From Acidobacteriota bacterium (GTDB lineage: Bacteria > Acidobacteriota > UBA4820 > DSQY01), in assembly GCA_037444825.1 (NCBI GenBank), contig JBBILR010000002.1:27984-91983 (forward strand): a stretch of DNA of 64,000 nt, written 5' to 3'. Shown one piece after another: positions 1,887 through 21,145 of this stretch. Both the position numbers and the translations under genes were made by a program. Under the pieces are notes generated by a model. That model made no database searches. It saw only the letters and a program-made list of their open reading frames with translations, and was not told the DNA's origin. How positions within the stretch are numbered: the stretch's first letter is position 1; each line of letters begins with the position of its first letter.

Positions 1887-3192
1887 GGATCTCTCCCACG
1901 AGGTCGTAGGGGTGCGCCTCCGTGACGCGGACCTTGGCGAAGGTCCCCGGAGGGGCGAAGCCGTCGTTGAGGAGAACCTTGCCGTCCACGTCGGGGGCCT
2001 GGGTGGGGAGGCGGCCCTCCAGGAGGTGCTCGGTCTCCTCGGAGACCCCTTCCACCAGCACGGTGACCTTCTGGCCCACCCGGGCGAGGTTCTTTTCGTA
2101 GGAGACGGCCTGCTGGAGGGCCAGTAGCCGCTCCTGGCGCCGGCGCTTGGTGCGGTTGTCCACGGGGTCGCCCAGGGGATGGGCCTTGGTCCCCTCCTCC
2201 CGGGAGTAGGTGAAGACGCCTAGGTGGTCGAAGCGGGCCTCCCTCACGAAATCCAACAGGAGACGGAAGTGCTCGCGCCTTTCCCCGGGGAAGCCCACGA
2301 TGAAGGTGGACCGCACGGCGAGGCCGGGGACGGTTCGCCGCGCCTTTTCGAGAAGGCGGAGAAAGGCCTCGGCGGAGCCCCCTCTCCCCATGGCCCCCAG
2401 GATCTCGGGGTGGGCGTGCTGGAGGGGAAGGTCGAGGTAGGGCACCACCCGGGAGCAGGAGGCCATGGCCTCCAGCAGGGGGCGGCGCAGGCGGTTGGGG
2501 TAGGCGTAGAGGACCCGGATCCAGGGAACCTCCGTCTCCTTCTCCAGGCGGCGCAGCAGCATGGCCAAGCCGTCCTTGAGCCCCAAGTCCCGGCCGTAGT
2601 CGGTGGTGTCCTGCGCGACGAGGACCGCCTCCCTCACCCCCCGCTCCGCCAGGGAGCGGACCTCCCGGACCACGTCGTCCGGGGGGCGGGAGCGGAAGGC
2701 GCCGCGGAAGGAGGGAATGGGGCAGAAGGAGCAGGGGTTGTCGCAGCCTTCGGCGATCTTGACGTACGCGAGGTGGGGCGGCGTGGAGAGGAGGCGGGGG
2801 GAGAGGCCGTCGTAGAGCGGCATCTCGACGCCCACGGGGGCGTCGGGTTTCTCCTCCGTGAGCAGGCGGGCCACCTGGCCCACCGCCCCCAGGGGGATGA
2901 AGCCGTCGATCTCCGGGATAGCCTGGCGAAGCTCCTCCTTGTAGCGCTCCACCAGGCACCCCGCCACGAGGAGGCGGCGGACGCGTCCCTCCTTCTTGCG
3001 CACCGCCACCTCGAGGATGGCCCGGATGGACTCCTCCTTGGCGGCGTCGATGAAGCCGCAGGTGTTCACGATGACCGTTTCGGCGTCGGGGTCCGCCGTC
3101 ACCTCGTGGCCGGCCGCCCGGAGTTGCCCGAGCATCCACTCGCCGTCCACCCAGTTCTTGGGGCACCCCAGCTGGACCATGGCCAGGCGCAT
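1873..3192 (-). CDS. rimO: ribosomal protein S12 methylthiotransferase (radical-SAM MTTase)
   Basis: MTTase N-domain (MRLAMVQLGCPKN), radical-SAM CxxxCxxC (CSFCPIPSFRG) and C-terminal TRAM domain. RimO-type rather than MiaB-type N-terminus. ATG at 3192 chosen over the upstream ORF extension. Confidence 0.85.
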   Translation of the reverse strand: MRLAMVQLGCPKNWVDGEWMLGQLRAAGHEVTADPDAETVIVNTCGFIDAAKEESIRAILEVAVRKKEGRVRRLLVAGCLVERYKEELRQAIPEIDGFIPLGAVGQVARLLTEEKPDAPVGVEMPLYDGLSPRLLSTPPHLAYVKIAEGCDNPCSFCPIPSFRGAFRSRPPDDVVREVRSLAERGVREAVLVAQDTTDYGRDLGLKDGLAMLLRRLEKETEVPWIRVLYAYPNRLRRPLLEAMASCSRVVPYLDLPLQHAHPEILGAMGRGGSAEAFLRLLEKARRTVPGLAVRSTFIVGFPGERREHFRLLLDFVREARFDHLGVFTYSREEGTKAHPLGDPVDNRTKRRRQERLLALQQAVSYEKNLARVGQKVTVLVEGVSEETEHLLEGRLPTQAPDVDGKVLLNDGFAPPGTFAKVRVTEAHPYDLVGEILGPA

Positions 3193-3304
3193 GGCGCCTC
3201 CCGCGGGGGAAAAGGTAGCACGGGGCGGGGGAGGGGGCAACGCGGGAGGGCGGGGGCGAAAAAAAGGGGCCCCCGAAGGGGCCCCCAGGGGAAAAGACTC
3301 GGAC

Positions 3305-6300: not shown

Positions 6301-9300
6301 CCCCGGCGTCGGTCCCCCGGTAGTACTTCCCGCCCGTCTGGTCGGCGATCCGCTGCATCACCGCGTCGTCGGGGCTTCCGAAGCCGATGGTGTAGATGGG
6401 GATGCGGGCCTGCTGGGCGTAGGCGATGATCTCCGCCTCGGTGTGGGAACTGCTGTTGTCCTCCCCGTCGGTCATGGCGAGGACCGCCTTGCGGCCCGTC
6501 TTGGCGGCGGTGGCCACGAGGGCGTCATAGGTGGCGTCGAAGAAGGCGGTGGAGCCTCCGCTGTAAGCGTACCCGTCGATGGCGGCGTAGAGGGCCTGCT
6601 TGTCGGCGGTGAAGTCGATCACGAAGTCCACCTGCGAATCGAAGCCCCAGACCGCCACCTGGTCCGACGCGCCGAGGAGGCCCACGAAGGTCTTGGCCGC
6701 GTTCTTCTCCAGCTGGAACTGGGAGGAGCCGAGGCTGCCCGAGTTGTCGATGGTGATGCCCACGTAGAGGGTGGATCCGCTCTGTCCCGCGCCGGTCACG
6801 GTGAAGTTCTGCGGCACGCCGTCCTCGCTGACGCAGAAGGAGGAGGCGGTGAGCCCCTGGACCGGCTGGCCCTGGCCGTCGAAGACGCTGACCACCGCCT
6901 GCACCGTGGGGCACCGGGAGGGGTCCACCTGGGCGATGGCGAGGGTGGGGCAGGTTCCCGACGCCCCGCACCGGAAGGTCCCCTGGACCCACCGGGTGCA
7001 CCCGCCGGTGGTCACGCAGAACCGGAGGTCGTGCAGGGCGCCGTCGGTCTTGGTGGTGGTGTAGGAGACCACGTACTGGCTTCCGAGGAGGGTGCCGATG
7101 GCGGAGAGGATCTGCTGGAGGTTCTGGGAGGAGGCCGAGGCGAAGAAGAGGCCGCCCGTCCTCGCGGCGATGTCCTGAAGGACGGCCTGGTCGGCGCTCC
7201 CGAAGGCGATGGTGAAGACGGGGATGCCGAGGCTCTGCGCGTAGAGGACGAGCTCGTCCTTGCCGTGGGAGGAGGAGTTGTCCTCCCCGTCCGTCATGGC
7301 CACGACGGCCTTTCGGCCGGACTTGGAGGCGGCGTTCGTGAGCGCCGCCCATACCCCGTCGTAGAAGGCCGTCATCCCCCCCTTGTAAGGGTAGCCGTCG
7401 ATGGCGGCGAGCAGGGTGGGTTTGTTCGACGTGAAGTCCTGGACCAGGTCCACCGTGCTGGTGAAGCCGTACACCGCGCACTGGTCGCCGGCGCCCAGCA
7501 GGTTCACCAGGGCCTTGGCGGCGGTCTTTTCGTCGTTGAAGGCCGACGAGCCGAGGGAGCCCGAGTTGTCGATCACCTGCGCGAGATACAGGGAGGTCCC
7601 GCTCTGGGAGGCGGTGGTCACCGTGAAGTTCGTGATGGAGGCGCCGTCCTCCTCGACGCAGAAGGCGGAAGAGGAGAGGCCCGTGACGGGGTTCCCGGTG
7701 GCGTCCCGGACCGTGAGAATTCCCCTCACCGTCGGGCACGCGGAGGTGTCCACCTGGGCCAGCGTCACCTGGGGGCAGTTGCCCCCGCCGGAGGTCCCGC
7801 ACCGCATGGTTCCCGAGGCGTAGGTGGTGGGGCAGCCGGGGAGGCTCTGGAGGCAGACGTCGAGGGCGTGGCTCTGGCCGTCGTTCTTCGTGGTGGTGTA
7901 GGTGAGGACGTACTGGTTGTTGATGACGTTGCCGATGTCGGTGAGGATCTGCTGGAGGTTCTGCGAGGTGGCCGAGGCGTAGTAGCGGCCGCCGGTCTGG
8001 GTGGCGATGGCGGTGAGGACCGCCACGTCCGCCGAGCCGAAGCCGATGGTGAAGACGGGGATGCCCAGGCTCTGGGCGTAGGCGATGAGTTCGGCCTGGG
8101 AGTGGGAGGAGGAGTTGTCCTCCCCGTCGGTCATGGCGATGACGGCCTTTCGCCCCGTCCTCGGCCCCGTGAGGGAGAGGGCCTGGTAGACCGCGTCGTA
8201 GAAGGCCGTCATCCCCCCCTTGTAGGGGTACCCGTCGATGGCGGCCTGGAGGGCGGCCTTGTCGGTGGTGAAGCCCTGGACGAGGTCCACCTGGCTCGTG
8301 AACCCCAGGAAGGCCGCGGCGTCCCCGGCGGCCAGGAGACCCACCAGGGCCTCGGCGGCGTTCTTCTCGTCGGCGAAGGCCGAAGAGCCGAGGCTTCCGG
8401 AGTTGTCCACCACCAGGGCCGCCTGGAGCGCGTTTCCGCCCCCGCTGCCGGTGGTGAGGGAAAAGCTCTGGGAGACCCCGTCCTCCGAGAGGCAGAAGTT
8501 GGAGGCCGTGAGACCCGTCACCGCCTGTCCCGAAGGGCTGGTCACCGTGACCACGACCTTCACCGTGGGGCAGGAGGCGGTGTCCACCTGGGAGACGGTG
8601 AGGGTGGGGCAGCTCCCGCCGGCGCCGCAGGTGAAGGAGCCCTGGGCGGTGAGGAGGGAGCAGCCGGGGGCCTGGACGCAGGGTTCCAGCGTGTGGCTCT
8701 GGCCGTCGGCGCGTGGGGTGGTGTAGGTGATCACGTACTGGTTGTTCATGACGGCGCCGATGGCTTGGAGGATGGCCTGCAGGTTCCCCGAGGAGGCGGC
8801 GGCGTAGAAGCGGCCCCCCGTCTGGGTGGCGATGGCCTCCAGGACCTGGGTGTCCGCGCTACCGAAACCGACGGTGAAGACGGGGATGCCGAGGCTCTGC
8901 GCGTAGGCGATGAGCTGGGCCTGGGAGTGGGAGGAGGAGTTGTCCTCCCCGTCGGTCATGGCGACGACGGCCTTCCGGCCGTTTCGGGTGGAGGTGTTGG
9001 AGAGGGCCTGGTAGACCGCGTCGTAGAAGGCCGTCATGCCGCCCTTGTACGGGTAGCCGTCGATGGCCGCGGAGAGGGCGGCCTTGTCGGCGGTGAAGTC
9101 CATCACCAGGTCCACGGCGCTGGTGAAGCCGTAGACCGCCGCCTGGTCGGAGGCGCCCAGGAGGGCGATGAAGGCCTCGGCGGCGGCTTTCTCTTCGTGG
9201 AACGAAGACGACCCCAGGCTGCCGGAGTTGTCCAGCACCAGGGCGGTGTAGAGGTCCCCTCCCCCCGACGAGCCATGGGTGACGGTGAAGTTCGTCACGG

Positions 9301-10666
9301 GGACCCCGTCTTCGCTCAGGCAGAAGTCGGAAGCGGTGAGCCCCGTCACCGCCCCCCCGGCGGCGTCGAGGACGCTCACCACGGCCTTGACGGTGGGGCA
9401 GGCGGAGGTGTCCACCTGGTTGAGCAACAGCGTGGCGGGGCAGGTGGACTGGCAGCCCGCCGGCACGTTCACGTGGCCGGGAACGGTCTTCGTGCCGGCG
9501 TTGGTGGAGGAGACCTGAATGGTGTAGGCGAGGTCCCCGGTGACCGCCCCGCTGGCGCTGACCTGCCAGGAGAGGAGTGCGGAGGAGCCGAGGGGGAGGT
9601 CCCCCACCGTCTGGGTGGCGCTGCCGGCGGCCAGAGACAGGCCCGCCGGCAGGGTCAGCGTGGCGGAGAGCCCCGTCACGGTCCCGCTGGAGCCGGAGAG
9701 GGTGTTGGAAAGGTACAGGGACACGGTGAAGGGGTTGGGGGAGAAGAGGTGGTTGACGCAGTCCAGGTTGGAGGGGGCCGTGAGGGCCGTGGCCACCGGA
9801 GGGACGGTGTCCACCGCGATGGACCCCAGCCCGTAGTAGGTTCCGAAGGTGAGGCTCGACCCCGGGGCCAGCGCCCGGTTCTCCCAGTAGACGGCGTAGG
9901 CCGTGTCGTAGATGGTGAACTGGGGGTTCACGGTGTAGTCGAAGTCTTGGTCGTACAGGTGGGCCCACCCGGCCACCTGGAAGCGGTCCGGAGGCAGGGC
10001 CACCAGGCCTCCCAGGAGGGTGCCCTGGCAGGTGGTGGTGGGGTTGTAGAGGTCGTCGAAGACGTAGAAGTACGGCGGCAGGGAGGCGCCGGTCCACTCC
10101 CGCTCCTGGGCGATGGAGCCGGTCCCGGGGACCTGGAAGGGGGCGTTGTCGTTGGCCCCGATCTTGGTGTCGAGCATGATGCGGCAGCCCACCGTGTGCG
10201 AAACGGAGTCCAGGTTCTCCACGGTGTAGGAGACGAAGTAGGCGTCCTGGCGCCCGGTGGCGGTGCTGGTCACCAGCGTGATCCGCTGGCGGACCCGGAG
10301 GGGGCCCGTCCCCAGGTACCAGACGCCCTCGTTGGTCTGGCCGTTGTTGGTGGGGGGCTGGACGAGGGTCCCGAAGGAGTCCTCGTTGGTGTACACGGTG
10401 CCGTCCACCTGGATGGAGGAGAAGGAACTCCACGGGTAGGGGTGGCCGTAGAGGATCATGGGCCCGCCGGGGACGCCCATGGTGAACTGGCCCGAGGTGT
10501 CGTCGAGGGCCACCTCGATGTACGGGGACCCCGGCCCCCACGAGAGGGGCCTCGGCGGGCCGGGCCGAAGGGCCTCCTTCCCGCCGCCCGCCGCGAAGGC
10601 GGCGAAGGTCCCGGCGAACGCCGACAGGAGGAGCACCGCCGCACGCGAAATCCGACGCATTCTCAT
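3305..10666 (-). CDS. giant secreted multidomain protein (2454 aa): signal peptide, ~380-aa N-terminal domain, 4x [beta-sandwich + von Willebrand factor A domain with DxSxS MIDAS], 1 PKD, Ig-like domain, 7-bladed RCC1-like beta-propeller, 4 PKD domains, C-terminal IPT/TIG-like domain
   Basis: ATG at 10666 has a GGAGG RBS 8 nt upstream and a signal peptide (MRMRRISRAAVLLLSAFAGTFAAFAAG). Four near-identical modules each carry DNSGSLGSS...TDGEDNSSSH...GIPV(F/Y)T(V/I)GFGS (VWA/MIDAS). Seven RCC1-type blades are visible (HxLxLxxDGTVWAWGxNxxGQLGDGTT), and there are repeated PKD-type WxFGDG...HxYxxxGxYT motifs. The ORF-track start at 10843 is an upstream extension without RBS. Confidence 0.85.
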   Translation of the reverse strand: MRMRRISRAAVLLLSAFAGTFAAFAAGGGKEALRPGPPRPLSWGPGSPYIEVALDDTSGQFTMGVPGGPMILYGHPYPWSSFSSIQVDGTVYTNEDSFGTLVQPPTNNGQTNEGVWYLGTGPLRVRQRITLVTSTATGRQDAYFVSYTVENLDSVSHTVGCRIMLDTKIGANDNAPFQVPGTGSIAQEREWTGASLPPYFYVFDDLYNPTTTCQGTLLGGLVALPPDRFQVAGWAHLYDQDFDYTVNPQFTIYDTAYAVYWENRALAPGSSLTFGTYYGLGSIAVDTVPPVATALTAPSNLDCVNHLFSPNPFTVSLYLSNTLSGSSGTVTGLSATLTLPAGLSLAAGSATQTVGDLPLGSSALLSWQVSASGAVTGDLAYTIQVSSTNAGTKTVPGHVNVPAGCQSTCPATLLLNQVDTSACPTVKAVVSVLDAAGGAVTGLTASDFCLSEDGVPVTNFTVTHGSSGGGDLYTALVLDNSGSLGSSSFHEEKAAAEAFIALLGASDQAAVYGFTSAVDLVMDFTADKAALSAAIDGYPYKGGMTAFYDAVYQALSNTSTRNGRKAVVAMTDGEDNSSSHSQAQLIAYAQSLGIPVFTVGFGSADTQVLEAIATQTGGRFYAAASSGNLQAILQAIGAVMNNQYVITYTTPRADGQSHTLEPCVQAPGCSLLTAQGSFTCGAGGSCPTLTVSQVDTASCPTVKVVVTVTSPSGQAVTGLTASNFCLSEDGVSQSFSLTTGSGGGNALQAALVVDNSGSLGSSAFADEKNAAEALVGLLAAGDAAAFLGFTSQVDLVQGFTTDKAALQAAIDGYPYKGGMTAFYDAVYQALSLTGPRTGRKAVIAMTDGEDNSSSHSQAELIAYAQSLGIPVFTIGFGSADVAVLTAIATQTGGRYYASATSQNLQQILTDIGNVINNQYVLTYTTTKNDGQSHALDVCLQSLPGCPTTYASGTMRCGTSGGGNCPQVTLAQVDTSACPTVRGILTVRDATGNPVTGLSSSAFCVEEDGASITNFTVTTASQSGTSLYLAQVIDNSGSLGSSAFNDEKTAAKALVNLLGAGDQCAVYGFTSTVDLVQDFTSNKPTLLAAIDGYPYKGGMTAFYDGVWAALTNAASKSGRKAVVAMTDGEDNSSSHGKDELVLYAQSLGIPVFTIAFGSADQAVLQDIAARTGGLFFASASSQNLQQILSAIGTLLGSQYVVSYTTTKTDGALHDLRFCVTTGGCTRWVQGTFRCGASGTCPTLAIAQVDPSRCPTVQAVVSVFDGQGQPVQGLTASSFCVSEDGVPQNFTVTGAGQSGSTLYVGITIDNSGSLGSSQFQLEKNAAKTFVGLLGASDQVAVWGFDSQVDFVIDFTADKQALYAAIDGYAYSGGSTAFFDATYDALVATAAKTGRKAVLAMTDGEDNSSSHTEAEIIAYAQQARIPIYTIGFGSPDDAVMQRIADQTGGKYYRGTDAGALQQILTDIGNLINNQYVISYDTIYTDGSVHDLEICVTYQGCTAYARAVSQCGSPCAVTCQAWAPTSAFTAVPAAFFGQAVSSCGTGGVGYEWNFGDGAPLSTLQNPTHAYLAPGTYTWTLTATATGAQPCVQTGTVTVTNATCVKPRITAHPQSQVVSPGSSVTLSVAAQGTTALSYQWYEGPSGTITSPISGATSSTYTTPAVQTTKRYWVKVTASCGSTYSQTAVLSVASNAHGWGNNNSGEVGDGTSGSDRTGPVGVLGPSAFVQVAAGSDHSLGLAADGTVWAWGNNGSGELGDGTQTPSRFPKQVQGLSNVVQVAAGINWSLALKADGTVWGWGDNGNGNLGDGTTTDRFTPVQVSGLTGVTAIAAGGYHAVARKSNGTVWAWGDNYYGQCGDGGSTDRHTPVQVSGIVTASAVAAGEHHTLILKSDGTVWACGNNADGQCGDNTTTTRRTPVQVSGLTDVTAIAAGRDHNLAVKSGGTLWVWGDNYYAQLGDGTTTDRRAPVQLPGIANASAVAAGDRHSLLIRTDHTLWAWGTNGDGQVGDGTTTTRSTPVQVTGVSGVLQADGGALHSLCVAFGVSAAATPAAGPAPLAVTLQAAATGGTPPYGYSWDFGDGNTATGASASHTYTAAGTYTAQVTATDASGYTARAATTITVSSLAVTVTASPSNPSGSAPLSVDFSCAATGGSTPYTYAWSFGDGGTGTSADPPAHTYAVPGTYAAIVTVMDSQGSVKTSAPVTVRVYSPVMARATVQPSRARVGQAVSFHVSASGGDGYFPTFTWAFGDGSSGSGANPTHAYSAPGTYTARATVYDGAGNSAQSNEVTVKVYGPVSASISGRSSAGPNVPVTFSASASGGDGHYAYAWNFGDGGTATGASVSHAWATKATYTITLTVTDGLGQTATASQTITIVDPPVIASMVKKSPPFKIVVNGSNLQQGIKVYIDGTEWTGVVYKSSTKIVLTGSTLKTTVPRGVPKTFRFVNPDGGEATTVWSW
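4558..5602. repeat. intragenic tandem repeat: seven ~150-bp RCC1-like propeller-blade units
   Basis: Seven consecutive ~50-aa units with a conserved W(A/G)WGxN...G(E/Q)(L/C)GDGTTT...P(V)QV...V..(V/I)AAG..H(S/T)L pattern. Confidence 0.75.
6118..9448. repeat. intragenic tandem repeat: four ~830-bp VWA-domain modules inside the giant gene
   Basis: Protein modules at aa 466-745, 746-1025, 1026-1300 and 1301-1575 of the ORF are highly similar over ~275 aa each. This implies ~0.83-kb direct DNA repeats. Confidence 0.8.
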
Positions 10667-10950
10667 GGAATCACCCTCCTCGGGGGAAGGGGGCGCCGAA
10701 GAGCGAAGGAATCCCCTTTCCCTCCCGGGGGGAATCTTGCAAGGACCGTTCCGCCGCCGTTCTTCGGGAAACTCCCTCAAAATGCGAGGGGATGATTCTC
10801 CGCAGGCCCCGAGGGGCGAAAAATTTTCCCGGGCCCCGTCCATTTTTCGTGGCTCCCGTCGCCGAAAAAAACCTTGTGGCTTCCCGGGGAGGGGGATAGA
10901 CTTCCCGCAAGCCTGGCGGAAGAGGGGGTAGCCCCTTGCGGGAGGAAAAG

Positions 10951-13900
10951 ATGACCGGTCCGAGGCTCAGGGCGGCGGCGGCGGTTCTGGGGCTCCTCGC
11001 CGGGCAGGCGTGGGCCGGCGGGGCGCTGCGGGTTCTGAAGGCGGGTCCCGTGGGGGAGACGGCCAACCTCGCACAGGCCGGGGAGATCCGGGTGGTCTTC
11101 TCGGAGCCCATGGTGGCCTTGGGGCGGGTGGCGGAGCTTCGGGAGGTGAGGGGGTTCTCCATCTCCCCCCCCGTGGCCGGCACCTTCCGGTGGGCGGGGA
11201 CCGACACGCTGATCTTCCGTCCCGAAACCCCCCTCCCCTTCGCAACCCGGTACGAGGTGCGGATCGGCCCCGAACTCCGGGCGGTCTCCGGGCAGAGCCT
11301 GCCGAACCCCTACGTCTTCGCCTTCACCACCCCCACGGTGAGGCTGAGGAGCGTGCGGTGGATCCGCGAGGACGGGACGGTCCGCTCGCCGGTCCTCCTG
11401 GCGGTGGCCTTCAACCAGAAGGTGGACCCCCGGCAGGTTCTGCCCCACCTCTCGCTGGCCTACCGGCCCCACGACTACGCGCCGCCCCCCCTTCCCGCGG
11501 GGGTCAAGGAGCGCCTTTCCCGGGAGGACCCGCGGGCGGTGGAGGACTACCAGTTCAAGGCCGCCGCCGCCATGCTGGCCGCCAGGTCCTCGGACCCGGT
11601 CCCCTTCGAGGCCGCGGCCTCCTGGGACGAGAAGCGATTCCCCCGGGCCCCGGAGGTGCTGGTGGTGCGAACCCGGTCGGCCCCTCCCCCCAACGCCTGG
11701 TTGGAGGTGGTGCTGGACGGGAAGGCGCCGAGCCCCGAGGGCCCCGAGGTCTCGGGGGAGGTCCAGCGGTACACGGTCCAGCTGGAACCGGCCTTTTTCG
11801 TCAAGGGTTTTCGATGCACCTACCGGTGCGTTCCGGACGGGTACAACCCCCTGGAGTTCACCGCCGACGTCCGCTTCGGCGATCTGAAGGAGGCGGTCTC
11901 CCTCTTCACCGGCGACGCCGGGGGGGGCGCCGTCCGGAAGGCCTCGCCGGAAGGGGAGGGGGAATCCTGGGATTGGCCCTCTCGGTACTGGTCCCTGGAC
12001 CGCCTGGGCCTGGAGCCGCCCCCCGCCGCCTCCTTCTTCGTCCAGGTGGACCGCGGCCTGAGGTCCGACGACGGCCAAGTCCTCGGCTACACCTGGCTCT
12101 GCGAAATGACCACCACCCACCGCACGGCCTTCTCCGCCTTCGAATCGGGCTTCGGGGTCTGGGAGGCCTCCGGCGGCCCGGTGCTCCCCCTTTCCGTCCG
12201 CAACCTCGCCTCCGTGAACCTCTGGGTCATGCCGCTGAAGCTGGGGGAGCTCCTGCCGGCGGTGCGGCAGCTGGCGGTGCGCCCCGTCTCCAAGGACCCC
12301 GACACGGGGGAGGAGGAACCGGACTACACGTGGCGGCCCTTCTCCCTTCCCCCGCCCGTCCCACCGGTCTTCCGGCGCCTGAAGACCCCGGTGGACCGCA
12401 CCGCCTTCGTGGGCCTGGACCTCTCGCCCGCGTTGAACGAGAAAGGCAAGGGACTTTCGTGGGTGGCGGTGAAGAACGGCGAGGCCATCCCGGGGGCGCC
12501 CTTCGCCGCGGAACCCCCGCTCAAGGCCTCCCTCATCCAGGTCACCGACCTGGGCCTCACCGTGAAGGATTCGCCCCAGGGCTTCCTGGTCTGGGTCACC
12601 CGCCTCTCCGACGGGACCCCCGTCTCGGGGGCCTCCGTGGCCGTCTGGAAGCCGGACGGGAGCCGGGTCTTCGAAGGCGTCACCGGCGCCGACGGCACCG
12701 TCCTCACCCCGCCCCTCTCCCTTCGGGACCCCGAGAACGGGTGGGACCTCTCCTTCGTGGTCTCGGCGGAGAAGGACGGCGACACGGCCTACCTCTGCTC
12801 CGACTGGAACGAGGGCCTGGAGCCGTGGGAGTTCGGGGTCGGTTACGACCTCCACGAGCAGAAGCCGGTGCTGAGGGGGCGGGTCTTCCCCGACCGGGGC
12901 GTCTACAAGCTCGGCGAGGAGGTCCACCTGAAGGCGGTCCTCCGAAGCGACACGGCCTCCGGCATGAAGGTCCCCCCCGAAGGGACGGAGGCGGCCCTCC
13001 TCGTGAGCGACAGCCGAGGAGGCAAGGTGGCGGAGCGTACGGTGGCCCTGGACGCCTTCGGGGCGGCGGAGGTGGTGGTGAAGCTCCCCGAGGAGGCGCC
13101 CCTGGGGACCTACACCGTCACGGCGGAGGTGAAGGGCCACCACCGGGAGGTGCGGGACGCCTTCCTGGTGGCGGCCTACCGGAAGCCCGACTTCCGCGTG
13201 GACGCCGCCCTCGGGGCCGAGCGGCCGGTGGCGGGCGTCCCCCTCCTGGGGACGGTGACGGGGCGGTACCTCTTCGGCGCCCCCATGGCGGGGAGGCCCT
13301 GCCGCTTCTCCGTGACGCGGCGGAGGCTCACCGGAGCCACCCCCGCCGTCACCCAGCGGTACCCCGAGGGGTGGATCTTCGGCGAGGGGACGGACCGGTG
13401 GGACTCCCGCGGGGAGGAGACCGTGAAGGAGGCCGACGGGACCCTGGACGCCCAGGGGACCCTCCGGGTGGAGGTCCCCACCGGGGACGGCCAGGGCCTC
13501 TCCTACACCTACACGCTGGAGGGGACCGTCACCGACGTCACCCGCCAGACCCTCTCCGGGCGGATCTCCGTTCCCGTCTACGCCGCGCCGTTCTTCGCGG
13601 GCCTCAAGGACCCGCCGTTCTTCGTGGACGCGGGCAAGGACCTGGTGACGGAGGTCCTCACCCCGGACCTCTCGGGGAACCCCGTGGAGGGCCTCTCCGT
13701 CTCCCTCAAGCTCGTGCAGGTCCAGTGGCACGCCGTGCGGAGGGCCGAGGGCAACGGCTTCTACACGTGGGAAACGGAGCGGAAGGAGGTGGAGCGGTGG
13801 ACGGGGAAGGTGACCTCCGCCGCCCGGCCGGTGGAGGTCCGGATCCCCGTGGAGCAGGGGGGGTACTACCTCCTCCGCGCGGAGGCCGCCGACGGCGAGG

Positions 13901-16788
13901 GAAGGGTCTCCCGCTGCGGGGCCTCCTTCTACGCCTTGGGCGCGGGCTTCACCGCCTGGGAGCGGTACGACCACAACCGCATCGACCTCGTCCCCGAGAG
14001 GAGCACGTACCGGCCCGGCGAGACGGCGCGGATCCTCGTCAAGTCCCCCTGGGAGAAGGCCAAGGCCCTCCTCACCGTGGAGCGGGAAGGGGTCCGCACC
14101 CACCGGGTCTTCGACCTCGTCTCCACCCAGCAGACGGTGGAGGTCCCCGTGGGGGAGGGCGACGTGCCCAACCTCTACGTCTCGGTGGTCCTCCTCAAGG
14201 GCCGGACGGAGGCCTACACCGGCGAGGACGTCTCGGACCCCGGCAAGCCGGCCTTCCGCGTGGGCCTCGTGGAACTCCACGTGGAGAACCTCGTGAAGCG
14301 GCTCTCGGTGGCCGTCTCCAGCGACGCCGACGAGTACCGCCCCGGCGCCCGGGCCGTCGTCTCCGCCGTGGTCACCGACGGGGCGGGAAAGCCCGCCGAG
14401 GCCCAGGTGACCCTCTGGGCGGTGGACCACGGCGTCCTCTCCCTCACCGGCTACCAGACCCCGGACCTTTTGCCCTCGGTCTGGGTGGACAAGGCCCAGC
14501 AGGTCCTCACCGAGGACTCCCGCCAGCGCATCGTTTCCCGGAGGGTGCTCACCCCCAAGGGGGCGGACGAAGGGGGCGGAGGAGGAATGGAGGAGGGCCC
14601 GGGGGAGGTCCGGCGGGACTTCCGGGTCCTCGCCTTCTACCTGGGTTCCCTCGTCACGGACGCCAAGGGAAAAGTTACTTCTGAAGTAACATTGCCGGAG
14701 AGCCTCACCACCTACCGGATCATGGCCGTGGCCCACGACAAGGCCTCCCGCTTCGGCTTCGGCCAGAAGGAGATCCGCACCGCCAAGCCGCTGGTGCTCC
14801 TGCCCTCCCTGCCCCGCTTCCTGGCGCGGGGGGACCGGGCCGTCTTCGGCGTGGTGGTCCACAACCGCGGCGGGTCCTCGGGCCGGGTCCGGGTGGAGGC
14901 GGAGAGCCTGGACGCCGGCCGGCTGGCCCTCGCCGGCCCCACGGTCCAGGAGGTGGATTCGGCCCCGGGCGTTCCCGGGGAGGTCCGCTTCGCCTTCGAA
15001 GCCCGCGGGGTGGGCAAAGCCCGCCTCCGCTTCCGCGCCGCCCTGGGCGGGGAGACGGACGCCTTCGAGCAGGTGCTCCCGGTGGAGGTCCTCAACGCCC
15101 CCGAGGCCGCCGTGGCCACGGGCTCCACCGAGGGTACGGCGGAGGAGGCCCTGGAGGTCCCCGGGGGGGTGGTGCCCGGCTTCGGCGGGCTGGAGGCGAG
15201 CCTGTCCTCCACGGCCCTCGCCGGTTTGGAGGAGGGGGCGAGGTACCTGGTGGACTACCCCTACGGCTGCGCCGAGCAGCGCGGCTCCGCCACCCTCGCC
15301 CTGGTGCTGGTCTCCGACCTCTCGGGGGCCTTCCACCTCCCCGGCATCGAGACGGAGAAGATCCGGGACATCGCCCAGCGGAACCTCAAGGCCCTGGAGG
15401 CCTTCCAGTGCGAAGACGGCGGATTCGTCTACTGGAAGGGCTCTTCGTGCCTCTACGCCTCCGAGGTCCTCACCGCCTACCTCCTCCACGTCTTCCAGCG
15501 GGCGCAGGCGCTGGGCTTCGCCGTGAACGAGGAGGTCCTCCGCAAGGGGTACGACTTCCTGTCCCGGGCGCTGAACCGCCCCTACCCGGTGAACGAGGGG
15601 TGGTGGCCCCACTACACCGCCTGGCAGGCCTACGCGGTGAAGGTCCTGGCCGACGGGGGCCTCACCGTGGACAGCCACCTGAGCCGGCTTTACCCGTACG
15701 CAGGCCGAATGCCGGTCTTCGGCCTGGCCTACCTGGAGGGCGCCATGGCCCGCTCCGGCCGCTTCCAGGCCGAACGGCAGGACCTGTTGCGCCGGATGGA
15801 CGACGCCATCCTCCCCGAGGGGGCCGGCGCCCACGTGGAGGAGCTTTCCGACCCGTACCTCCTGTGGTTCTGGAACTCCAACGTGCGCTCCACGGCCATC
15901 GTCCTCTCGGCCTTCGCCAGGGACCCCGGGCGCCGCCACACCGCCGAGCGCATGGTGCGCTGGCTCCTGGACGCACGGCGGAAGGGGAGGTGGGGCAACA
16001 CCCAGGAGAACGCCCACGCCCTGGAGGCCCTCATCGACTACTACCGCGCCTACGAGAAGGAGACCCCCGACTTCCGGGCCGCGGTCTCCCTGGCGGGGAA
16101 GACCCTCCTGGAGGAGCGTTTCGCAGGGCGGACCACCGAGGCCAAAGGGACGGCGCTGAAGATGGAGGCCCTCCACGCGGAGGCTTCCTCGGGCGCGCGC
16201 CTGCCTCTGGTGTTCTCCAAGAAGGGAACGGGCAGGCTCTTCTACACGGCGCGCCTGAAGTACGCCCTCGCCCCCGAAGGCCTTGGCCCGGTGGACCAGG
16301 GCATCGCGGTGGAGCGGCGCTACGAGCTCTACGAGGGCGACGGCGGCCAGGGGCCCACCCGCGCCTTCCCCCAGGGCCGCCTTGTCCGGGTGACCCTGAC
16401 CCTTCACCTCCCCAAGGAACGGCGGTACGTCGCCGTCACCGACCCCCTCCCCGCCGGCCTGGAGCCGGTGGAGTCCTGGTTCGCCACCACCGCCAGGGAC
16501 CTCCAGAAGGCCCCGCCGCCTTCCTCCGGGGACGAAGGGGACGAGGAGGGCGAGGGGGAGGGGTGGTTCCTCCTTTGGCAGCGCGGCGGCTTCGACCACG
16601 TGGAGCGCCGCGACGACCGCGTCCTCCTCTTCGCCACCCGCCTGGCGGCGGGCAAGCACGCCTTCTCCTACGTGGCGAGGGCCACCACCCAGGGCGTTTT
16701 CGTCGTCGCCCCCGCCCGCGCCGAGGAGATGTACAGCCCCGAGGTCTTCGGCCGCACCGCCACGGAGGTGGTGGAGGTGCTCCCGTAG
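10951..16788 (+). CDS. bacterial alpha-2-macroglobulin family protein (thioester-containing, periplasmic; YfhM-like)
   Basis: ~1945 aa. Signal peptide without lipobox Cys (LLAGQAWA|GG). Thioester motif GCAEQ at 15268-15279 inside YLVDYPYGCAEQRG, and an A2M receptor/complement-like C-terminus. Start set at the ATG with a GGGAGG RBS (10951); the 10936 ATG is also possible. Confidence 0.85.
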   Translation: MTGPRLRAAAAVLGLLAGQAWAGGALRVLKAGPVGETANLAQAGEIRVVFSEPMVALGRVAELREVRGFSISPPVAGTFRWAGTDTLIFRPETPLPFATRYEVRIGPELRAVSGQSLPNPYVFAFTTPTVRLRSVRWIREDGTVRSPVLLAVAFNQKVDPRQVLPHLSLAYRPHDYAPPPLPAGVKERLSREDPRAVEDYQFKAAAAMLAARSSDPVPFEAAASWDEKRFPRAPEVLVVRTRSAPPPNAWLEVVLDGKAPSPEGPEVSGEVQRYTVQLEPAFFVKGFRCTYRCVPDGYNPLEFTADVRFGDLKEAVSLFTGDAGGGAVRKASPEGEGESWDWPSRYWSLDRLGLEPPPAASFFVQVDRGLRSDDGQVLGYTWLCEMTTTHRTAFSAFESGFGVWEASGGPVLPLSVRNLASVNLWVMPLKLGELLPAVRQLAVRPVSKDPDTGEEEPDYTWRPFSLPPPVPPVFRRLKTPVDRTAFVGLDLSPALNEKGKGLSWVAVKNGEAIPGAPFAAEPPLKASLIQVTDLGLTVKDSPQGFLVWVTRLSDGTPVSGASVAVWKPDGSRVFEGVTGADGTVLTPPLSLRDPENGWDLSFVVSAEKDGDTAYLCSDWNEGLEPWEFGVGYDLHEQKPVLRGRVFPDRGVYKLGEEVHLKAVLRSDTASGMKVPPEGTEAALLVSDSRGGKVAERTVALDAFGAAEVVVKLPEEAPLGTYTVTAEVKGHHREVRDAFLVAAYRKPDFRVDAALGAERPVAGVPLLGTVTGRYLFGAPMAGRPCRFSVTRRRLTGATPAVTQRYPEGWIFGEGTDRWDSRGEETVKEADGTLDAQGTLRVEVPTGDGQGLSYTYTLEGTVTDVTRQTLSGRISVPVYAAPFFAGLKDPPFFVDAGKDLVTEVLTPDLSGNPVEGLSVSLKLVQVQWHAVRRAEGNGFYTWETERKEVERWTGKVTSAARPVEVRIPVEQGGYYLLRAEAADGEGRVSRCGASFYALGAGFTAWERYDHNRIDLVPERSTYRPGETARILVKSPWEKAKALLTVEREGVRTHRVFDLVSTQQTVEVPVGEGDVPNLYVSVVLLKGRTEAYTGEDVSDPGKPAFRVGLVELHVENLVKRLSVAVSSDADEYRPGARAVVSAVVTDGAGKPAEAQVTLWAVDHGVLSLTGYQTPDLLPSVWVDKAQQVLTEDSRQRIVSRRVLTPKGADEGGGGGMEEGPGEVRRDFRVLAFYLGSLVTDAKGKVTSEVTLPESLTTYRIMAVAHDKASRFGFGQKEIRTAKPLVLLPSLPRFLARGDRAVFGVVVHNRGGSSGRVRVEAESLDAGRLALAGPTVQEVDSAPGVPGEVRFAFEARGVGKARLRFRAALGGETDAFEQVLPVEVLNAPEAAVATGSTEGTAEEALEVPGGVVPGFGGLEASLSSTALAGLEEGARYLVDYPYGCAEQRGSATLALVLVSDLSGAFHLPGIETEKIRDIAQRNLKALEAFQCEDGGFVYWKGSSCLYASEVLTAYLLHVFQRAQALGFAVNEEVLRKGYDFLSRALNRPYPVNEGWWPHYTAWQAYAVKVLADGGLTVDSHLSRLYPYAGRMPVFGLAYLEGAMARSGRFQAERQDLLRRMDDAILPEGAGAHVEELSDPYLLWFWNSNVRSTAIVLSAFARDPGRRHTAERMVRWLLDARRKGRWGNTQENAHALEALIDYYRAYEKETPDFRAAVSLAGKTLLEERFAGRTTEAKGTALKMEALHAEASSGARLPLVFSKKGTGRLFYTARLKYALAPEGLGPVDQGIAVERRYELYEGDGGQGPTRAFPQGRLVRVTLTLHLPKERRYVAVTDPLPAGLEPVESWFATTARDLQKAPPPSSGDEGDEEGEGEGWFLLWQRGGFDHVERRDDRVLLFATRLAAGKHAFSYVARATTQGVFVVAPARAEEMYSPEVFGRTATEVVEVLP

Positions 16789-16920
16789 GCCGGAGGAGGC
16801 GTCAGACCGGGAACCGGTCCGGGAGGGTCCTGGAAACCGGCCCGGGACGGCCGAGGCTTCTCGGTCCCCAAGGGCCGGAAGCGGGCCTGTCGGCGGGGCG
16901 CCGGAAGGGAGTGGGCGCGC

Positions 16921-18486
16921 TCACCTCCCCCGTTCGTAGGGGGCGAAGGCGACGGTGTTGGCGCGGTAGTCGAACCAGACGGCGAAGAGGTCCAGGATGT
17001 CCCTCCGGCCGAGGATCCCGTACAGAGGGAGGCCCCAGCCGCCGCCCAGGGGGGTCACCTGCACCGTCTGCATGTCGAAGCGGGCATTTCCCAGGAGGAG
17101 GACGACGTCGGTGGCCACGCCGCTGGTGAAGGCGCCGGAGAGCCCCGACCCCGTCTGGGCGCCGTAGCGGCCCGAGTTCACCCGGACCCCCGCTTCGGCG
17201 GCCCTTTCCGCCGCGATGAAGGTGGTGTAGGCGCCGGTGTCCACCATGAAGAAGCGCTCCGGCTTTCCCTGGAGGGTGGCGGCGACGAAGGGCCGGTCGT
17301 AGGGCCAGAGGGACTTGACGGTGAAGGCCTCCGGTCCCAGGGCCTCCTTCGGCGGGGTGCCGCTGGGGTGGAGGACCAGCTTGCTCCGCCGCCGGTCGTA
17401 GAGGAGACCGTGGTGCCGGAAGAGGGAGAGGGGCACGATGCCGCCCACCTCCTTGAAGAAGTCTTCCTTCTCGCTCAGGACCAGCGCGGGGACGTTGCGG
17501 AGGGTCAGGGGCCCGAAGGCGAGGCGGTCGAGGATCACCCAGTTGGACTTCTGGGCCCCGAGGTAGCCGAGGCCGAGGTAGGAGGCGGTGGCCACCGGCT
17601 GGAGGCCCAGCTCCTTGACCCACTTCGGGCTCAGAAGGAGGGTGTCGGAACCGGAATCGAGGAGCACGAGGCGGTCCTTGGTGCCGTTCACCGCCACCGG
17701 CGTCACCACGCGGGTGGAGGTGGTGACGCTGCCGGTCCCCGCGTCCCCGAAACCCCAGGTGAGGGCCGAGACGTCCCGGTACTCCGACTTCTCCTTGAGG
17801 GGAAGGGCGACGGGGTACGAAGCCTCCAGCTTCTCGTCGAAGAGCCGCCCCTTTCCCACGGCGCCGTAAAGGCGTTTCAGCCCCTCGTACTCGTCCTTTC
17901 CGGCGGGGTCGGCGGCCAGAAGCGCCTCGGCCCGCATGACCCCCTCCTCCCCCGTCTTCGCCAGGCCGAGGGCCAGCCGGAGGAGCTCCGGCGAGGGCTT
18001 CTCCGAAAGCGACAGGGTCCTTTCCAGGAGGGCCGACGCCTCCTCTTCCTTGCCCGACGCGCGCAGGGCGAAGACCGCCCGGGCGCAGGCCCGGTCCCGC
18101 CAGGAGGGGTTGGAGAGGAGGACCGTCCAGTTCTGCACCGCCTGGGGGACGAGGAGCATCTGGAAGGCCGCCTCGCCCGCGTAGTACCGCAGCTCCGGCC
18201 GGTCGGGAAAGCGCGAGGCCCAGGGGACGGCCATGCGGGCCGCCTCCTGGGGCCGGTTCAGGCCCAGGAGGGCCCGGATCTTCCCGGCGGCGTAGCCGGG
18301 GTTGTCCGGTTCGGCTTGGAGGCCCGCTTCGGCGGACTGCAACGCCTCCTCGTACTTTTCCCCCTCCAACAGGAGCCCGATTTCCTGGAGCCGTCCCGGC
18401 GGGAGGGTCCCCCCCGTCTGGGCCCAGGCGGGGAATGCCAAGATGAACGCCAGAAGGGCCTGAAGAAGCCGTGGTCGGAGCGCCAT
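16921..18486 (-). CDS. secreted TPR-repeat protein with two tandem retropepsin-like aspartic protease domains
   Basis: Signal peptide (MALRPRLLQALLAFILAFPAWAQ), a TPR-like helical N-half, then two clan-AA catalytic motifs preceded by hydrophobics: LVLLDSGSDTLLLS (DSG at 17650-17658) and FFMVDTGAYTTF (DTG at 17233-17241). Confidence 0.75.
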   Translation of the reverse strand: MALRPRLLQALLAFILAFPAWAQTGGTLPPGRLQEIGLLLEGEKYEEALQSAEAGLQAEPDNPGYAAGKIRALLGLNRPQEAARMAVPWASRFPDRPELRYYAGEAAFQMLLVPQAVQNWTVLLSNPSWRDRACARAVFALRASGKEEEASALLERTLSLSEKPSPELLRLALGLAKTGEEGVMRAEALLAADPAGKDEYEGLKRLYGAVGKGRLFDEKLEASYPVALPLKEKSEYRDVSALTWGFGDAGTGSVTTSTRVVTPVAVNGTKDRLVLLDSGSDTLLLSPKWVKELGLQPVATASYLGLGYLGAQKSNWVILDRLAFGPLTLRNVPALVLSEKEDFFKEVGGIVPLSLFRHHGLLYDRRRSKLVLHPSGTPPKEALGPEAFTVKSLWPYDRPFVAATLQGKPERFFMVDTGAYTTFIAAERAAEAGVRVNSGRYGAQTGSGLSGAFTSGVATDVVLLLGNARFDMQTVQVTPLGGGWGLPLYGILGRRDILDLFAVWFDYRANTVAFAPYERGR

Positions 18487-18614
18487 GCGTCCCCCTTTCC
18501 CCCGGTGGTTCACGGGTCGGGGTTCATTGTACACCAGAAACCGGCGGCCGTTGTGAGCCGAGGCCCCCGGGAAGGGTCTCCGGCTCGGCCTCGGGGTTGT
18601 TGTACCCTGAAAAC

Positions 18615-20951
18615 ATGGGCGAGAAGGCGAAGCGGTGGGTCTGGAGGGCGGCCGCCGGGGCGCTCCTGGCGGCGGCCGGGGCGGCCTACGTGCGGTGCGG
18701 CCCCCTCCCCCCGTCGCTCCTGGACCCCTCCCCCCGGCTTTCCACGGCGGTGCTCGACCGGAGGGGCCGCCCCCTCTACGAACGCCTCTCCGCGAAGGAG
18801 GCGCGGAGCGCCTGGCTGGATCCCGGGAGCGTCCCCCCCCTCGTGGAGGCGGCCACGCTGGCGGCGGAGGACCACCGCTTCCACCGCCACGCGGGTCTCG
18901 ACCCCTGGGCGCTCCTCCGGGCGGCCTGGAACGACCTCCGGGCCGGGCGGATTCGGGAGGGGGGCTCCACGCTCACCCAGCAGGCGGTGAAACAACTCAC
19001 CGGCCGCCCCCGAACGATGGCCGGAAAGGTGCGGGAGATGGTCCTGGCCCTTCGCCTGGAGCACCGCCTCGAAAAGCGGGAGATCCTCGCCCTTTACCTG
19101 AACGTGGCGCCTTACGGGAACCAGGCGGAGGGGATCGGAGAGGCGGCCCGGACCTACTTCGGCTGCCGCCCTTCCCACCTGACGCCCGCCCAGGCGGCCT
19201 TTCTGGCGGGTCTTCCCCAGCGCCCCTCGGCCTTCGACCCCTACCGCCGGCTCGGCGAAGCCCGCGCGCGCCAGCGGTGGGTCCTTCGCCGTATGCGCGC
19301 CCTCGGGTTCCTCGACGATGCGGCCTACCGGCGGGCCCTTTCGGAGCGGCTGGTCCTCCGGCGGCCCGACCGTCCCTTCCAGGCGCCCCACTTCGTCCAG
19401 CGGGTCCTGGAGGCGTGCCCGCCGGGCACGAGGGAGGTTCGAACGACCCTGGACCTGGACCTCCAGCGGAAGGTCCTTCAAATCCTTCAGGCGGGGCGGA
19501 TGGCGCGGGAGGCCCACGGCGCCTTCGCCGCCGCCGTGGTGGTGGTCCACAACCCTACGGGGGAGATCCTGGCGTACGAGGGGTCGGGGGACTACTTCGA
19601 CGCCGCCCACTCGGGGGCCATGGACGGGGCCCGGACCCCCCGCCAGCCGGGGTCGGCCCTCAAGCCCTTCACCTACGCCCTGGCCTTCGACGGCGGGTAC
19701 ACCCCCGCGTCGGTCCTCCCCGACCTCCCCCAGCACTTCCCCACCGCCGAGGAGGGGGTGGTCTACAGCCCCCGGAACTACGACGGGCGCTTCCGGGGGC
19801 CTCTGCGGGCCCGGGAGGCGCTGGGGGGATCCGAGAACGTTCCGGCGGTGGTCCTCCTCTCGCGGCTGGGGGCGGGACGTCTCCTCTCCCTCCTTCGGGA
19901 GCTGGGGCTCACGACGCTGGACCGGTCGGCTTCCTACTACGGCTTCGGCCTCACCCTGGGGGACGCCGAGGTCCGCCTCGACGAGCTGTGCGGCGCCTAC
20001 GCCGCCTTGGCGCGGGGAGGCCTCCACCTTCCCCTCGTGGACACGCTGAAGCGGGAGGGGGGGGAGGAAGCCGGCGGGCAGCCCCCTTCGCCTTCCCCGC
20101 CCCGCCGCCTTTTCTCTCTCCTGGCCGCCTACTGGACGGCCCACATCCTCGCCGACCCCGAAGCCCGGGCCTGGGCCTTCGGCCGCGGGGGAAGCCTCGA
20201 CTTCCCCTTCCCGGTCTGCGCCAAGACCGGAACCTCTGAGGCCTACCGGGACAACTGGTGCCTGGGCTTCACGCGGGAGGTCACGGTGGGGGTCTGGGTG
20301 GGCAACTTCGACCGCACGCCGCTGAAAGGGGCCTCGGGGGTCACCGGAGCCGGCCCCCTCTTCCACGAGGTCCTGCTGGAGGCCGAGCGCCACGTCCGGG
20401 GGGGACTGCCCGGCCCCCTGGACCCCTTCCCGGTGGACCCGCCGGAGGGGCTGGCCCCGGTGGAGGTGTGCGCCCTCTCGGGGGGGGCGGCGGGCCCCTC
20501 CTGCCCCTCCCGCCTTTCCGAGTCCTTTCCTCGGGAGCGGGTCCCGAAGCCCTGCGACTGGCACCTTCCGTCGGGCCGGGTGGCTTGGCCGGCGGAGTAC
20601 CGGGCCTGGGCCCGGCGGACCGGGCGCCTCGCGGAGGAGGAGCCCCGGCTGGCCCTCCCCGCCTCCCGCCCGCCCTCGGGGAAACCGGGAGGGCCCCTTC
20701 ACCTGGAGAACCCCCCCGACGGGGCCGTCTACCTCCTGGACCCCACCCTGCCGCCGGCCTTTCAGACCCTGCCCCTCAGGGCCTCCGTCCGGGGAGCGCC
20801 CCGGCGGCTCCTGTGGACGGTGGACGGCGAGGAAGTGGGGCGGTGCTCCTCGGAGGCGGGCCTGGAGTGGCCTCTGCGCCGCGGTGAACACACCGTGGAG
20901 GTGCGGGACGACCGCGGAGCCTCCGCCCGCGCCCGCATCCGGGTGAAGTGA
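18615..20951 (+). CDS. pbpC: penicillin-binding protein 1C (transglycosylase + transpeptidase)
   Basis: N-terminal TM anchor. GT51 motifs EDHRFHRHAGLD and GGSTLTQQ. Transpeptidase motifs SALKP, SxN-like and KTGT. The C-terminal PbpC-specific domain is present. Start taken at the internal ATG (MGEKAKRWVW) rather than the ORF-track GTG at 18471. Confidence 0.88.
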   Translation: MGEKAKRWVWRAAAGALLAAAGAAYVRCGPLPPSLLDPSPRLSTAVLDRRGRPLYERLSAKEARSAWLDPGSVPPLVEAATLAAEDHRFHRHAGLDPWALLRAAWNDLRAGRIREGGSTLTQQAVKQLTGRPRTMAGKVREMVLALRLEHRLEKREILALYLNVAPYGNQAEGIGEAARTYFGCRPSHLTPAQAAFLAGLPQRPSAFDPYRRLGEARARQRWVLRRMRALGFLDDAAYRRALSERLVLRRPDRPFQAPHFVQRVLEACPPGTREVRTTLDLDLQRKVLQILQAGRMAREAHGAFAAAVVVVHNPTGEILAYEGSGDYFDAAHSGAMDGARTPRQPGSALKPFTYALAFDGGYTPASVLPDLPQHFPTAEEGVVYSPRNYDGRFRGPLRAREALGGSENVPAVVLLSRLGAGRLLSLLRELGLTTLDRSASYYGFGLTLGDAEVRLDELCGAYAALARGGLHLPLVDTLKREGGEEAGGQPPSPSPPRRLFSLLAAYWTAHILADPEARAWAFGRGGSLDFPFPVCAKTGTSEAYRDNWCLGFTREVTVGVWVGNFDRTPLKGASGVTGAGPLFHEVLLEAERHVRGGLPGPLDPFPVDPPEGLAPVEVCALSGGAAGPSCPSRLSESFPRERVPKPCDWHLPSGRVAWPAEYRAWARRTGRLAEEEPRLALPASRPPSGKPGGPLHLENPPDGAVYLLDPTLPPAFQTLPLRASVRGAPRRLLWTVDGEEVGRCSSEAGLEWPLRRGEHTVEVRDDRGASARARIRVK

Positions 20952-21145
20952 CCGCCGGCGTGCCTCTCCGGCCACGCCCCTCGCTCCTTCGCGCTTCCGG
21001 GAAAGGGTCCGTCCTGGCGGGAAAGGAAACTCGCCTCAGGCCTCTCCGGGTTCGCCCAACTTCGTTCCGCCGGTCTTTCGTGCGGTAGAATGGTCGCCCG
21101 CCCCGGCGCGGGTGCCGCCGGGGCCATGGAGCGGAGGAGGCTTTC

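Follow-up and report, generated by a model that had tools for sequence, protein, structure and literature searches.

A predicted exported aspartic protease with two retropepsin-like lobes in a single TPR-bearing chain from an Acidobacteriota bacterium

A gene on the minus strand of a 64,000-nucleotide stretch of an Acidobacteriota genome (assembly GCA_037444825.1, contig JBBILR010000002.1, positions 27,984 to 91,983 of the forward strand; hereafter the window) encodes what is likely to be a soluble clan AA aspartic endopeptidase, exported by the Sec pathway and made of a single chain with duplicated and fused retropepsin-like lobes. The gene and its domains, their conservation, the homology between the two lobes, the predicted bilobed fold and the existence of relatives are established by the analyses reported here, whereas the apposition of the two catalytic Asp, the enzymatic activity, the function of the TPR domain and the periplasmic location of the product are put forward as the most plausible interpretation of the sequence.

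Two retropepsin-like lobes behind a TPR domain

The complete protein matches the PF13650 family (Asp_protease_2) of Pfam over two separate stretches (E 7.7e-20), and also TPR_19. When scanned alone, each of the two lobes clears the PF13650 gathering threshold of 24.3 bits, lobe 1 with 43.5 bits (E 5.3e-11) and lobe 2 with 34.4 bits (E 3.6e-8). In agreement with this, the catalytic motif of the family (two hydrophobic residues followed by D-[ST]-G-[AS]) is found twice, as LLDSGS and MVDTGA, within the hydrophobic segments LVLLDSGSD (D277) and FFMVDTGAY (D416), the two aspartates lying 139 residues apart. Besides D277-S-G-S (nt 17647-17658), lobe 1 presents a Gly-rich flap (residues 303-316, nt 17539-17580) and a C-terminal hairpin with the invariant D364-R365-R366 (nt 17389-17397), while lobe 2 combines D416-T-G-A (nt 17230-17241) with the flap GSGLSG (residues 446-458, nt 17113-17151) and with YGILGRRD (residues 488-495), a psi-loop motif of the retropepsin type. 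Alignment of the lobe 1 and lobe 2 sub-alignments with hhalign (93.8% probability, E 1.8e-7, 112 columns) pairs DSG with DTG, the Gly-rich hairpin GLGYLG with GSGLSG, GGIVP-LSLF with YGILGRRDILDLF and the YDRRRSKLVL hairpin with FDYRANTVAF. Hence, the two halves of the protein derive from a single retropepsin-like unit by internal duplication and do not represent a chance pair of tripeptides. Other aspartic protease models gave no comparable match: the pepsin (A1) family is absent from the Pfam hits at E <= 1, the TIGR02281 model (clan_AA_DTGA) scores 33.4 bits, below its NCBIfam cut-off of 57.95, and the models for PecA and the PE-PGRS C-terminal aspartic protease (NF038019 and PF20729) remain below their curated cut-offs of 150 and 33 bits, respectively.

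The region preceding the lobes belongs to the TPR group, as indicated by matches to TPR_19 (29.4 bits) and TPR_14 (26.8 bits) when it is scanned separately and by the solenoid of helical hairpins that it forms in the structural model. The N-terminus itself, MALRPRLLQALLAFILAFPAWA followed by Q, combines two Arg in the n-region, a hydrophobic core of 15 residues and an AxA site, and an equivalent signal-type N-terminus is present in 31 of 33 homologs, the remaining two being truncated gene calls. Outside the signal peptide, the protein contains neither a further transmembrane-like segment nor a lipobox Cys.

These results agree in most respects with a first-pass annotation made from the window sequence, which had placed an open reading frame at 16921-18486 and had described its product as two retropepsin-like domains in one chain, with motifs 139 residues apart, behind a signal peptide and a TPR-like helical region. 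It had also named the location of one motif in a non-homologous fold as the finding that would speak against this description; the two lobes share a Pfam family and align by hhalign, so that this objection does not apply. The numbering given there for the catalytic residues (D295 and D434) was nonetheless wrong, since they are D277 and D416 when counted from the ATG, and 293 and 432 when counted from an upstream GTG.

Conservation was assessed on an alignment of 33 homologous sequences extending down to 37% identity. No substitution occurs in this alignment at D277, G279, D416, T417 or G418, and conservation reaches at least 90% at S278, S280 and A419. The lobe 2 flap contributes two further invariant positions (G448 and G451) and the ILGRxxLD motif another four (G490, G493, L498 and D499). 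As regards the second psi-loop element, lobe 2 has YGILGRRD, with the invariant G490 and G493; at the position aligned with it lobe 1 has GGIVPLSLF, which keeps the Gly and the hydrophobic residues without the Arg-Asp pair.

A sister subfamily (32-41% identical) provides a useful point of comparison. Its members (L019 8297-10408, L020 2463-4163; P0047, P0048, P0050, P0052, P0064, P0066 and P0072) share the TPR region, both lobes and the KEKSE and YDRR motifs, but have lost the lobe 2 Asp (LSTSN or LATVN) and carry DSS or DSA in lobe 1, where the Gly is thus missing; by sequence, they are probable pseudo-proteases. The same metagenome-assembled genome (MAG) that harbors L019 also encodes an intact copy (L015). 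The decay of the dyad motifs in this subfamily, together with their invariance in the clade of the window protein, argues for catalytic activity in the latter. It is conceivable, on the other hand, that the window protein is an inactive binder built on a pepsin/retropepsin scaffold, in the manner of plant xylanase inhibitors or yeast Ddi1-like adaptors, with its cleft and TPR domain binding a ligand that is left uncut. We regard this as improbable, because both Asp, both Gly and the Ser/Thr positions of the presumed fireman's grip vary little or not at all in the window protein and its 32 nearest homologs, and because the sister group appears to fold without them, so that their retention would imply selection for catalysis.

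Within the linker that precedes lobe 1, KEKSE forms an invariant block (E232, S234 and E235 are invariant in the alignment). Together with DRR it makes up the two invariant charged motifs located away from the active site, and both are lost in the divergent relatives P0064, P0072 and P0059. A role for KEKSE as a pepsinogen-like inhibitory segment or as a site of auto-cleavage was considered and found to be unsupported, given that the sister subfamily, which is probably inactive as a protease, retains the motif. As loss of KEKSE tends to go hand in hand with loss of the YDRR hairpin, a structural salt-bridge pair fits better, and the pattern suggests that KEKSE and DRR form a salt-bridged strand pair in an inter-lobe sheet.

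Predicted fold and active site

An AlphaFold2 model of the single chain, computed with the family alignment, reached a mean predicted local distance difference test score (pLDDT) of 83.5 and a predicted TM-score (pTM) of 0.83, with most of the lobes above 85. Low confidence is limited to the signal peptide, the 236-256 loop and the flap tips (blocks 301-310 and 441-452), and the model is beta-rich outside the 11-helix region at residues 32-210. The closest PDB structure found with Foldseek is 9IY9 (E 2.6e-18), followed by the tethered HIV-1 protease dimers 4EQ0 and 1HVC (target-normalised TM-scores of 0.65-0.67 over about 260 columns), with plasmepsin X and the C-domain of Rv0977 interleaved with tethered HIV-1 proteases among the next matches. 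Since a lobe comprises only some 125 residues, alignments of about 260 columns indicate that both lobes are superposed at once, in the relative geometry seen in pepsins and retropepsin dimers, and in that geometry the two psi-loop Asp face each other. We infer that D277 and D416 are apposed in one intramolecular cleft of the modelled protein, which, with one Asp in each of its two lobes, is predicted to adopt the bilobed arrangement of the pepsin A1 fold. The pepsin-style pairing within one chain that had been proposed in the first-pass annotation is thus supported by the homology between the lobes and by the alignment across tethered HIV-1 dimers, and superposition of the whole unit would place the two Asp opposite each other.

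A mechanism consistent with these data can be outlined as follows. An ancestral Asp_protease_2 domain would have been duplicated and then fused, and the product would be exported by the Sec pathway to the periplasm or beyond. The lobes would pack within one polypeptide, as the subunits of retroviral proteases or the lobes of pepsin do, without any requirement for dimerisation, and D277 (DSGS, lobe 1) and D416 (DTGA, lobe 2) would form a single dyad at the bottom of the inter-lobe cleft, with S278 and T417 able to establish a fireman's grip. The flaps GLGYLG and GSGLSG may close over the substrate cleft, in a two-flap arrangement that would be retropepsin-like and unlike the single flap of pepsin. 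The half-sites appear to have diverged asymmetrically (DSGS-D versus DTGA-Y, with the ILGRD motif only in lobe 2), a divergence that the enzyme can afford because it is fused and that a homodimer cannot. The TPR domain, finally, would most likely serve as a docking site in the cell envelope, either for a partner or for substrates (proteins or peptides), by analogy with the PDZ domains of other superfamily members and with the TPR of the periplasmic protease BepA; in some relatives a PDZ domain takes its place.

Several observations weigh against this interpretation. The canonical motif of two hydrophobic residues followed by Gly-Arg-Asp/Asn is missing from lobe 1, where GGIVPLSLF takes its place; the model has low confidence at both flaps and in loop 236-256; the closest structure, 9IY9, was deposited as a putative endopeptidase; and the searched literature yielded no functional study of fused two-lobe exported forms. 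A different pairing of the lobes can also be envisaged. The characterised bacterial enzymes APRc, RimB and RloA are homodimers (PMC12239564), and the model was computed with one chain only, hence blind to intermolecular contacts, so that the lobes might instead pair across two chains, in a domain-swapped homodimer or higher oligomer with two active sites per dimer. We consider such an arrangement highly unlikely. The 9-residue inter-lobe linker and the confident single-chain model (pTM 0.83) are predicted to place the lobes as in pepsin or tethered HIV-1 protease, the asymmetry between them (DSGS versus DTGA, with ILGRD solely in lobe 2) fits a fixed hetero-pairing, and the 9IY9 entry lists a single chain. 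On balance, a single-chain, Sec-exported aspartic endopeptidase remains the preferred interpretation.

Relatives and known systems

A word-indexed search retrieved 35 full-length homologs of about 520 residues and 38-100% identity, all of which combine a TPR region with two Asp_protease_2 domains; close homologs carry the NCBI label 'aspartyl protease family protein'. The genome matches of the protease family all lie in Acidobacteriota MAGs (Thermoanaerobaculia and Aminicenantes). Paired full-length paralogs a few kb apart are frequent in the family (L002 10001-11620 and 13147-14724; L007 9956-11527 and 11740-13317; L009; L012 9842-11446 and 14048-15649; L014 3097-4701 and 5787-7388), and the window holds a single copy. 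The two-lobe architecture extends well beyond these sequences. A full HMMER scan of 1.84 billion representatives clustered at 50% identity with the two-lobe half returned 612 proteins at E <= 1e-3, and two lobes are present in nearly all of the best 150 of those 612. Among 180 collected proteins, 159 are two-lobed, their paired D[ST]G motifs being separated by about 135-150 residues; the single-lobe matches are mostly fragments. In a set of 70 diverse long two-lobe relatives, Asp_protease_2 was detected in all 70, TPR_19 in 37 and PDZ in nine. The rarity of the fused form implied by the first-pass annotation is therefore contradicted by the 612 matching clusters, by the occurrence of TPR in over half of the long relatives (37/70) and by a crystal structure of the same layout (9IY9); as far as sequence data go, the two-lobe form, often accompanied by a TPR region, is ordinary in bacterial sequence space.

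The 9IY9 structure, released in 2025-08, corresponds to an 'Exported protein' or putative endopeptidase of Bacteroides fragilis. It carries the motifs FDTGAGT and FDTGNST, aligns with the window protease over both lobes (E 2.8e-20) and has the same layout, in which a signal peptide, an N-terminal accessory domain and two D[ST]G lobes are found in one chain. The two proteins differ, however, in several respects: they come from different phyla and are only 12-14% identical, the N-domain of 9IY9 is shorter (about 150 residues, against about 230 before lobe 1 in the window protease), and 9IY9 has neither the KEKSE nor the YDRR motif of the acidobacterial subfamily. Our literature search found no paper on 9IY9 and nothing relevant on tandem, fused or bilobed retropepsins, and the papers retrieved mention PF13650 or Asp_protease_2 solely in the context of eukaryotic transposons.

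The characterised bacterial retropepsin-like enzymes APRc, RimB and RloA are single-lobe homodimers, and RloA is a demonstrated protease with flaps and an N-terminal signal peptide (PMC12239564, PMC4140852). For these enzymes, the premise of the first-pass annotation that bacterial retropepsin-like proteases are single domains that homodimerise holds. Rickettsia APRc (ApRick), Pseudomonas RimB and the secreted RloA1-3 resemble the window protease in their clan AA fold and in the DTG/DSG motif, and the family profile matches ApRick at E 2.7e-6. Their solved chains, however, comprise a single lobe of about 130-140 residues and are obligate homodimers, whereas the window protease consists of fused and diverged halves behind a TPR domain. 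The lobes of pepsin, for their part, have only the psi-loop motifs in common (PMC2761423). Pepsin has one flap, whereas the window protease has one per lobe and its lobes are still detectably homologous in sequence; nor does it match any pepsin Pfam model, the A1 group including the bacterial shewasins and the C-domain of PE_PGRS16/PecA-type proteins (Rv0977). A closer geometric parallel is offered by the tethered HIV-1 protease dimers (1HVC and 4EQ0), in which, as predicted for the window protease, two retropepsin units are arranged head to tail around one active site. These constructs are artificial, however, and much more compact (2 x 99 residues); their halves are identical and they lack an accessory domain. 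Exported proteases in which a binding repeat module picks envelope substrates or partners include BepA (M48 plus TPR), Prc/NlpI and DegP. Their resemblance to the window protease is one of function alone and by analogy, since they rely on metallo or serine catalysis and have unrelated folds.

Gene, genomic neighbourhood and significance

The features of the locus are listed in Table 1. The ATG of the protease gene occupies positions 18484-18486 and its stop codon positions 16921-16923. The longest open reading frame that can be drawn mechanically over the gene uses a GTG at 18534 as its start. The ATG was favoured because GGAAAGGGGGA lies 4 nt upstream of it and an equivalent Met is present in all full-length homologs. 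A promoter and terminator scan of 16600-18800 detected nothing beyond shuffled expectation, an Rfam scan gave no match either in 16000-19500 or across the whole window, and a tRNA scan found none.

Table 1. Features of the protease gene and its two neighbours (window coordinates)
Feature	Position	Strand	Basis
Complete gene, exported TPR and two-lobed retropepsin-like aspartic protease (predicted), 521 aa	16921..18486	-	open reading frame, translation, 35 full-length homologs, Pfam; stop codon counted in
Shine-Dalgarno-like run GGAAAGGGGGA	18491..18501	-	read off the sequence; 4 nt before the protease ATG
Sec-type signal peptide (predicted), residues 1-23, cleavage between AWA and Q	18418..18486	-	hydrophobicity and charge pattern; pLDDT <50 in the model
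TPR-like helical domain, residues 32-210, 11 helices (about 5.5 repeats)	17857..18393	-	
Beta-strand linker, residues 211-256, with KEKSE (231-235, nt 17782-17796) and low-confidence loop 236-256	17719..17856	-	alignment; model strands at 217-237
Lobe 1, residues 257-378	17353..17718	-	PF13650 alone (43.5 bits), invariant columns, hhalign to lobe 2
Inter-lobe linker, residues 379-387	17326..17352	-	AlphaFold2 secondary structure and alignment
Lobe 2, residues 388-519	16930..17325	-	PF13650 alone (34.4 bits), invariant columns, hhalign
Divergent intergenic region, protease gene / pbpC, 128 bp	18487..18614	.	both start codon positions; no sigma-70 consensus match
Alpha-2-macroglobulin (bacterial), 1950 aa, thioester motif CAEQ; convergent neighbour	10936..16788	+	Pfam bMG3, MG2, A2M_BRD, A2M, TED, bMG10
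PBP1c-type bifunctional peptidoglycan synthase; divergent neighbour	18615..20951	+	Pfam Transgly, Transpeptidase, BiPBP_C

The genes for alpha-2-macroglobulin (A2M) and PBP1c (pbpC) are usually adjacent and co-oriented. In the window (10936-20951) they are kept 1.8 kb apart by the protease gene, which lies on the opposite strand; the A2M has a cleavable signal peptide (AWA followed by G) and not a lipobox, and its CAEQ thioester motif is kept. This position raises the possibility that the protease is a dedicated part of an A2M-PBP1c periplasmic defence or repair locus, in which it would process A2M or PBP1c or act as a self-protease held in check by A2M. The protease gene sits exactly between the two, as it does in five related loci (L003, L004, L005, L008 and L010; protease 67-82% identical), the three products alike carry export signals, and in another sub-clade the neighbour of the protease gene encodes D-Ala-D-Ala ligase, also a cell-wall gene. 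Nevertheless, we deem this alternative unlikely. The protease gene runs opposite to both A2M and pbpC and is therefore not co-transcribed with them; A2M and PBP1c likewise show 62-83% identity in the five loci, and the common gene order may therefore be synteny inherited within one lineage; and neither A2M nor PBP1c is found within up to 10 kb on each side in L006 (71%) or in any of 13 loci at 53% identity or less. In L003 and L008, moreover, a DUF4440 gene also lies within the A2M-pbpC gap, which suggests an insertion-tolerant site. Hence, the location of the protease gene would be a case of lineage-specific synteny, pointing at best weakly to a functional link, and the connection with A2M drawn in the first-pass annotation goes no further than this, as the arrangement is restricted to loci of at least 67% identity and absent from L006 and the 13 more distant loci.

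Outside this lineage the surroundings of the gene vary. In other sub-clades (L002, L012, L014, L019 and L021) a divergent D-Ala-D-Ala ligase gene and a short-chain dehydrogenase gene lie upstream, and in L003, L008, L009 and L011 a pair of M16 peptidase genes is located 1-3 kb upstream of the protease gene; a recurrence of cell-wall genes beside different sub-clades may be noted as unproven. The only PADLOC match was below threshold (E 0.006), so there is no evidence of a role in a defence system. Divergently from the A2M gene, an open reading frame of 2512 residues (3308-10843, minus strand) combines four VWA domains, an RCC1-like beta-propeller and five PKD domains. Two plus-strand open reading frames opposite to it (2996-5941 and 5975-10795) were rejected as genes, being without Pfam match and apparently antisense artefacts of the minus-strand gene. 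Antisense open reading frames of up to 1960 residues also lie opposite real genes elsewhere (10777-16659, minus strand; 17368-18990, plus strand; 18510-20975, minus strand). Such very long antisense frames are due to a GC content of about 70% and do not point to overlapping genes.

That bilobed pepsins arose when a retropepsin-like half was duplicated and fused has long been proposed (PMC2761423). It would be tempting to see in the acidobacterial family a natural snapshot of a retropepsin homodimer turning into a pepsin-like monomer, recruited in the Thermoanaerobaculia lineage to an A2M-pbpC envelope-defence locus and acting on, or controlled by, A2M, but we hold this combined scenario to be very doubtful. 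The window gene adds one member to an architecture that is widespread, already annotated and represented by the deposited structure of a relative, and for that reason it opens no new question. At a more general level, fused exported forms bearing TPR or PDZ domains are numerous in metagenomes, whereas the characterised bacterial enzymes in the searched literature are all single-lobe homodimers. Bacterial chains in which both halves belong to one single-lobe family indicate that such fusions arise readily, and they would provide tractable models of half-site divergence.
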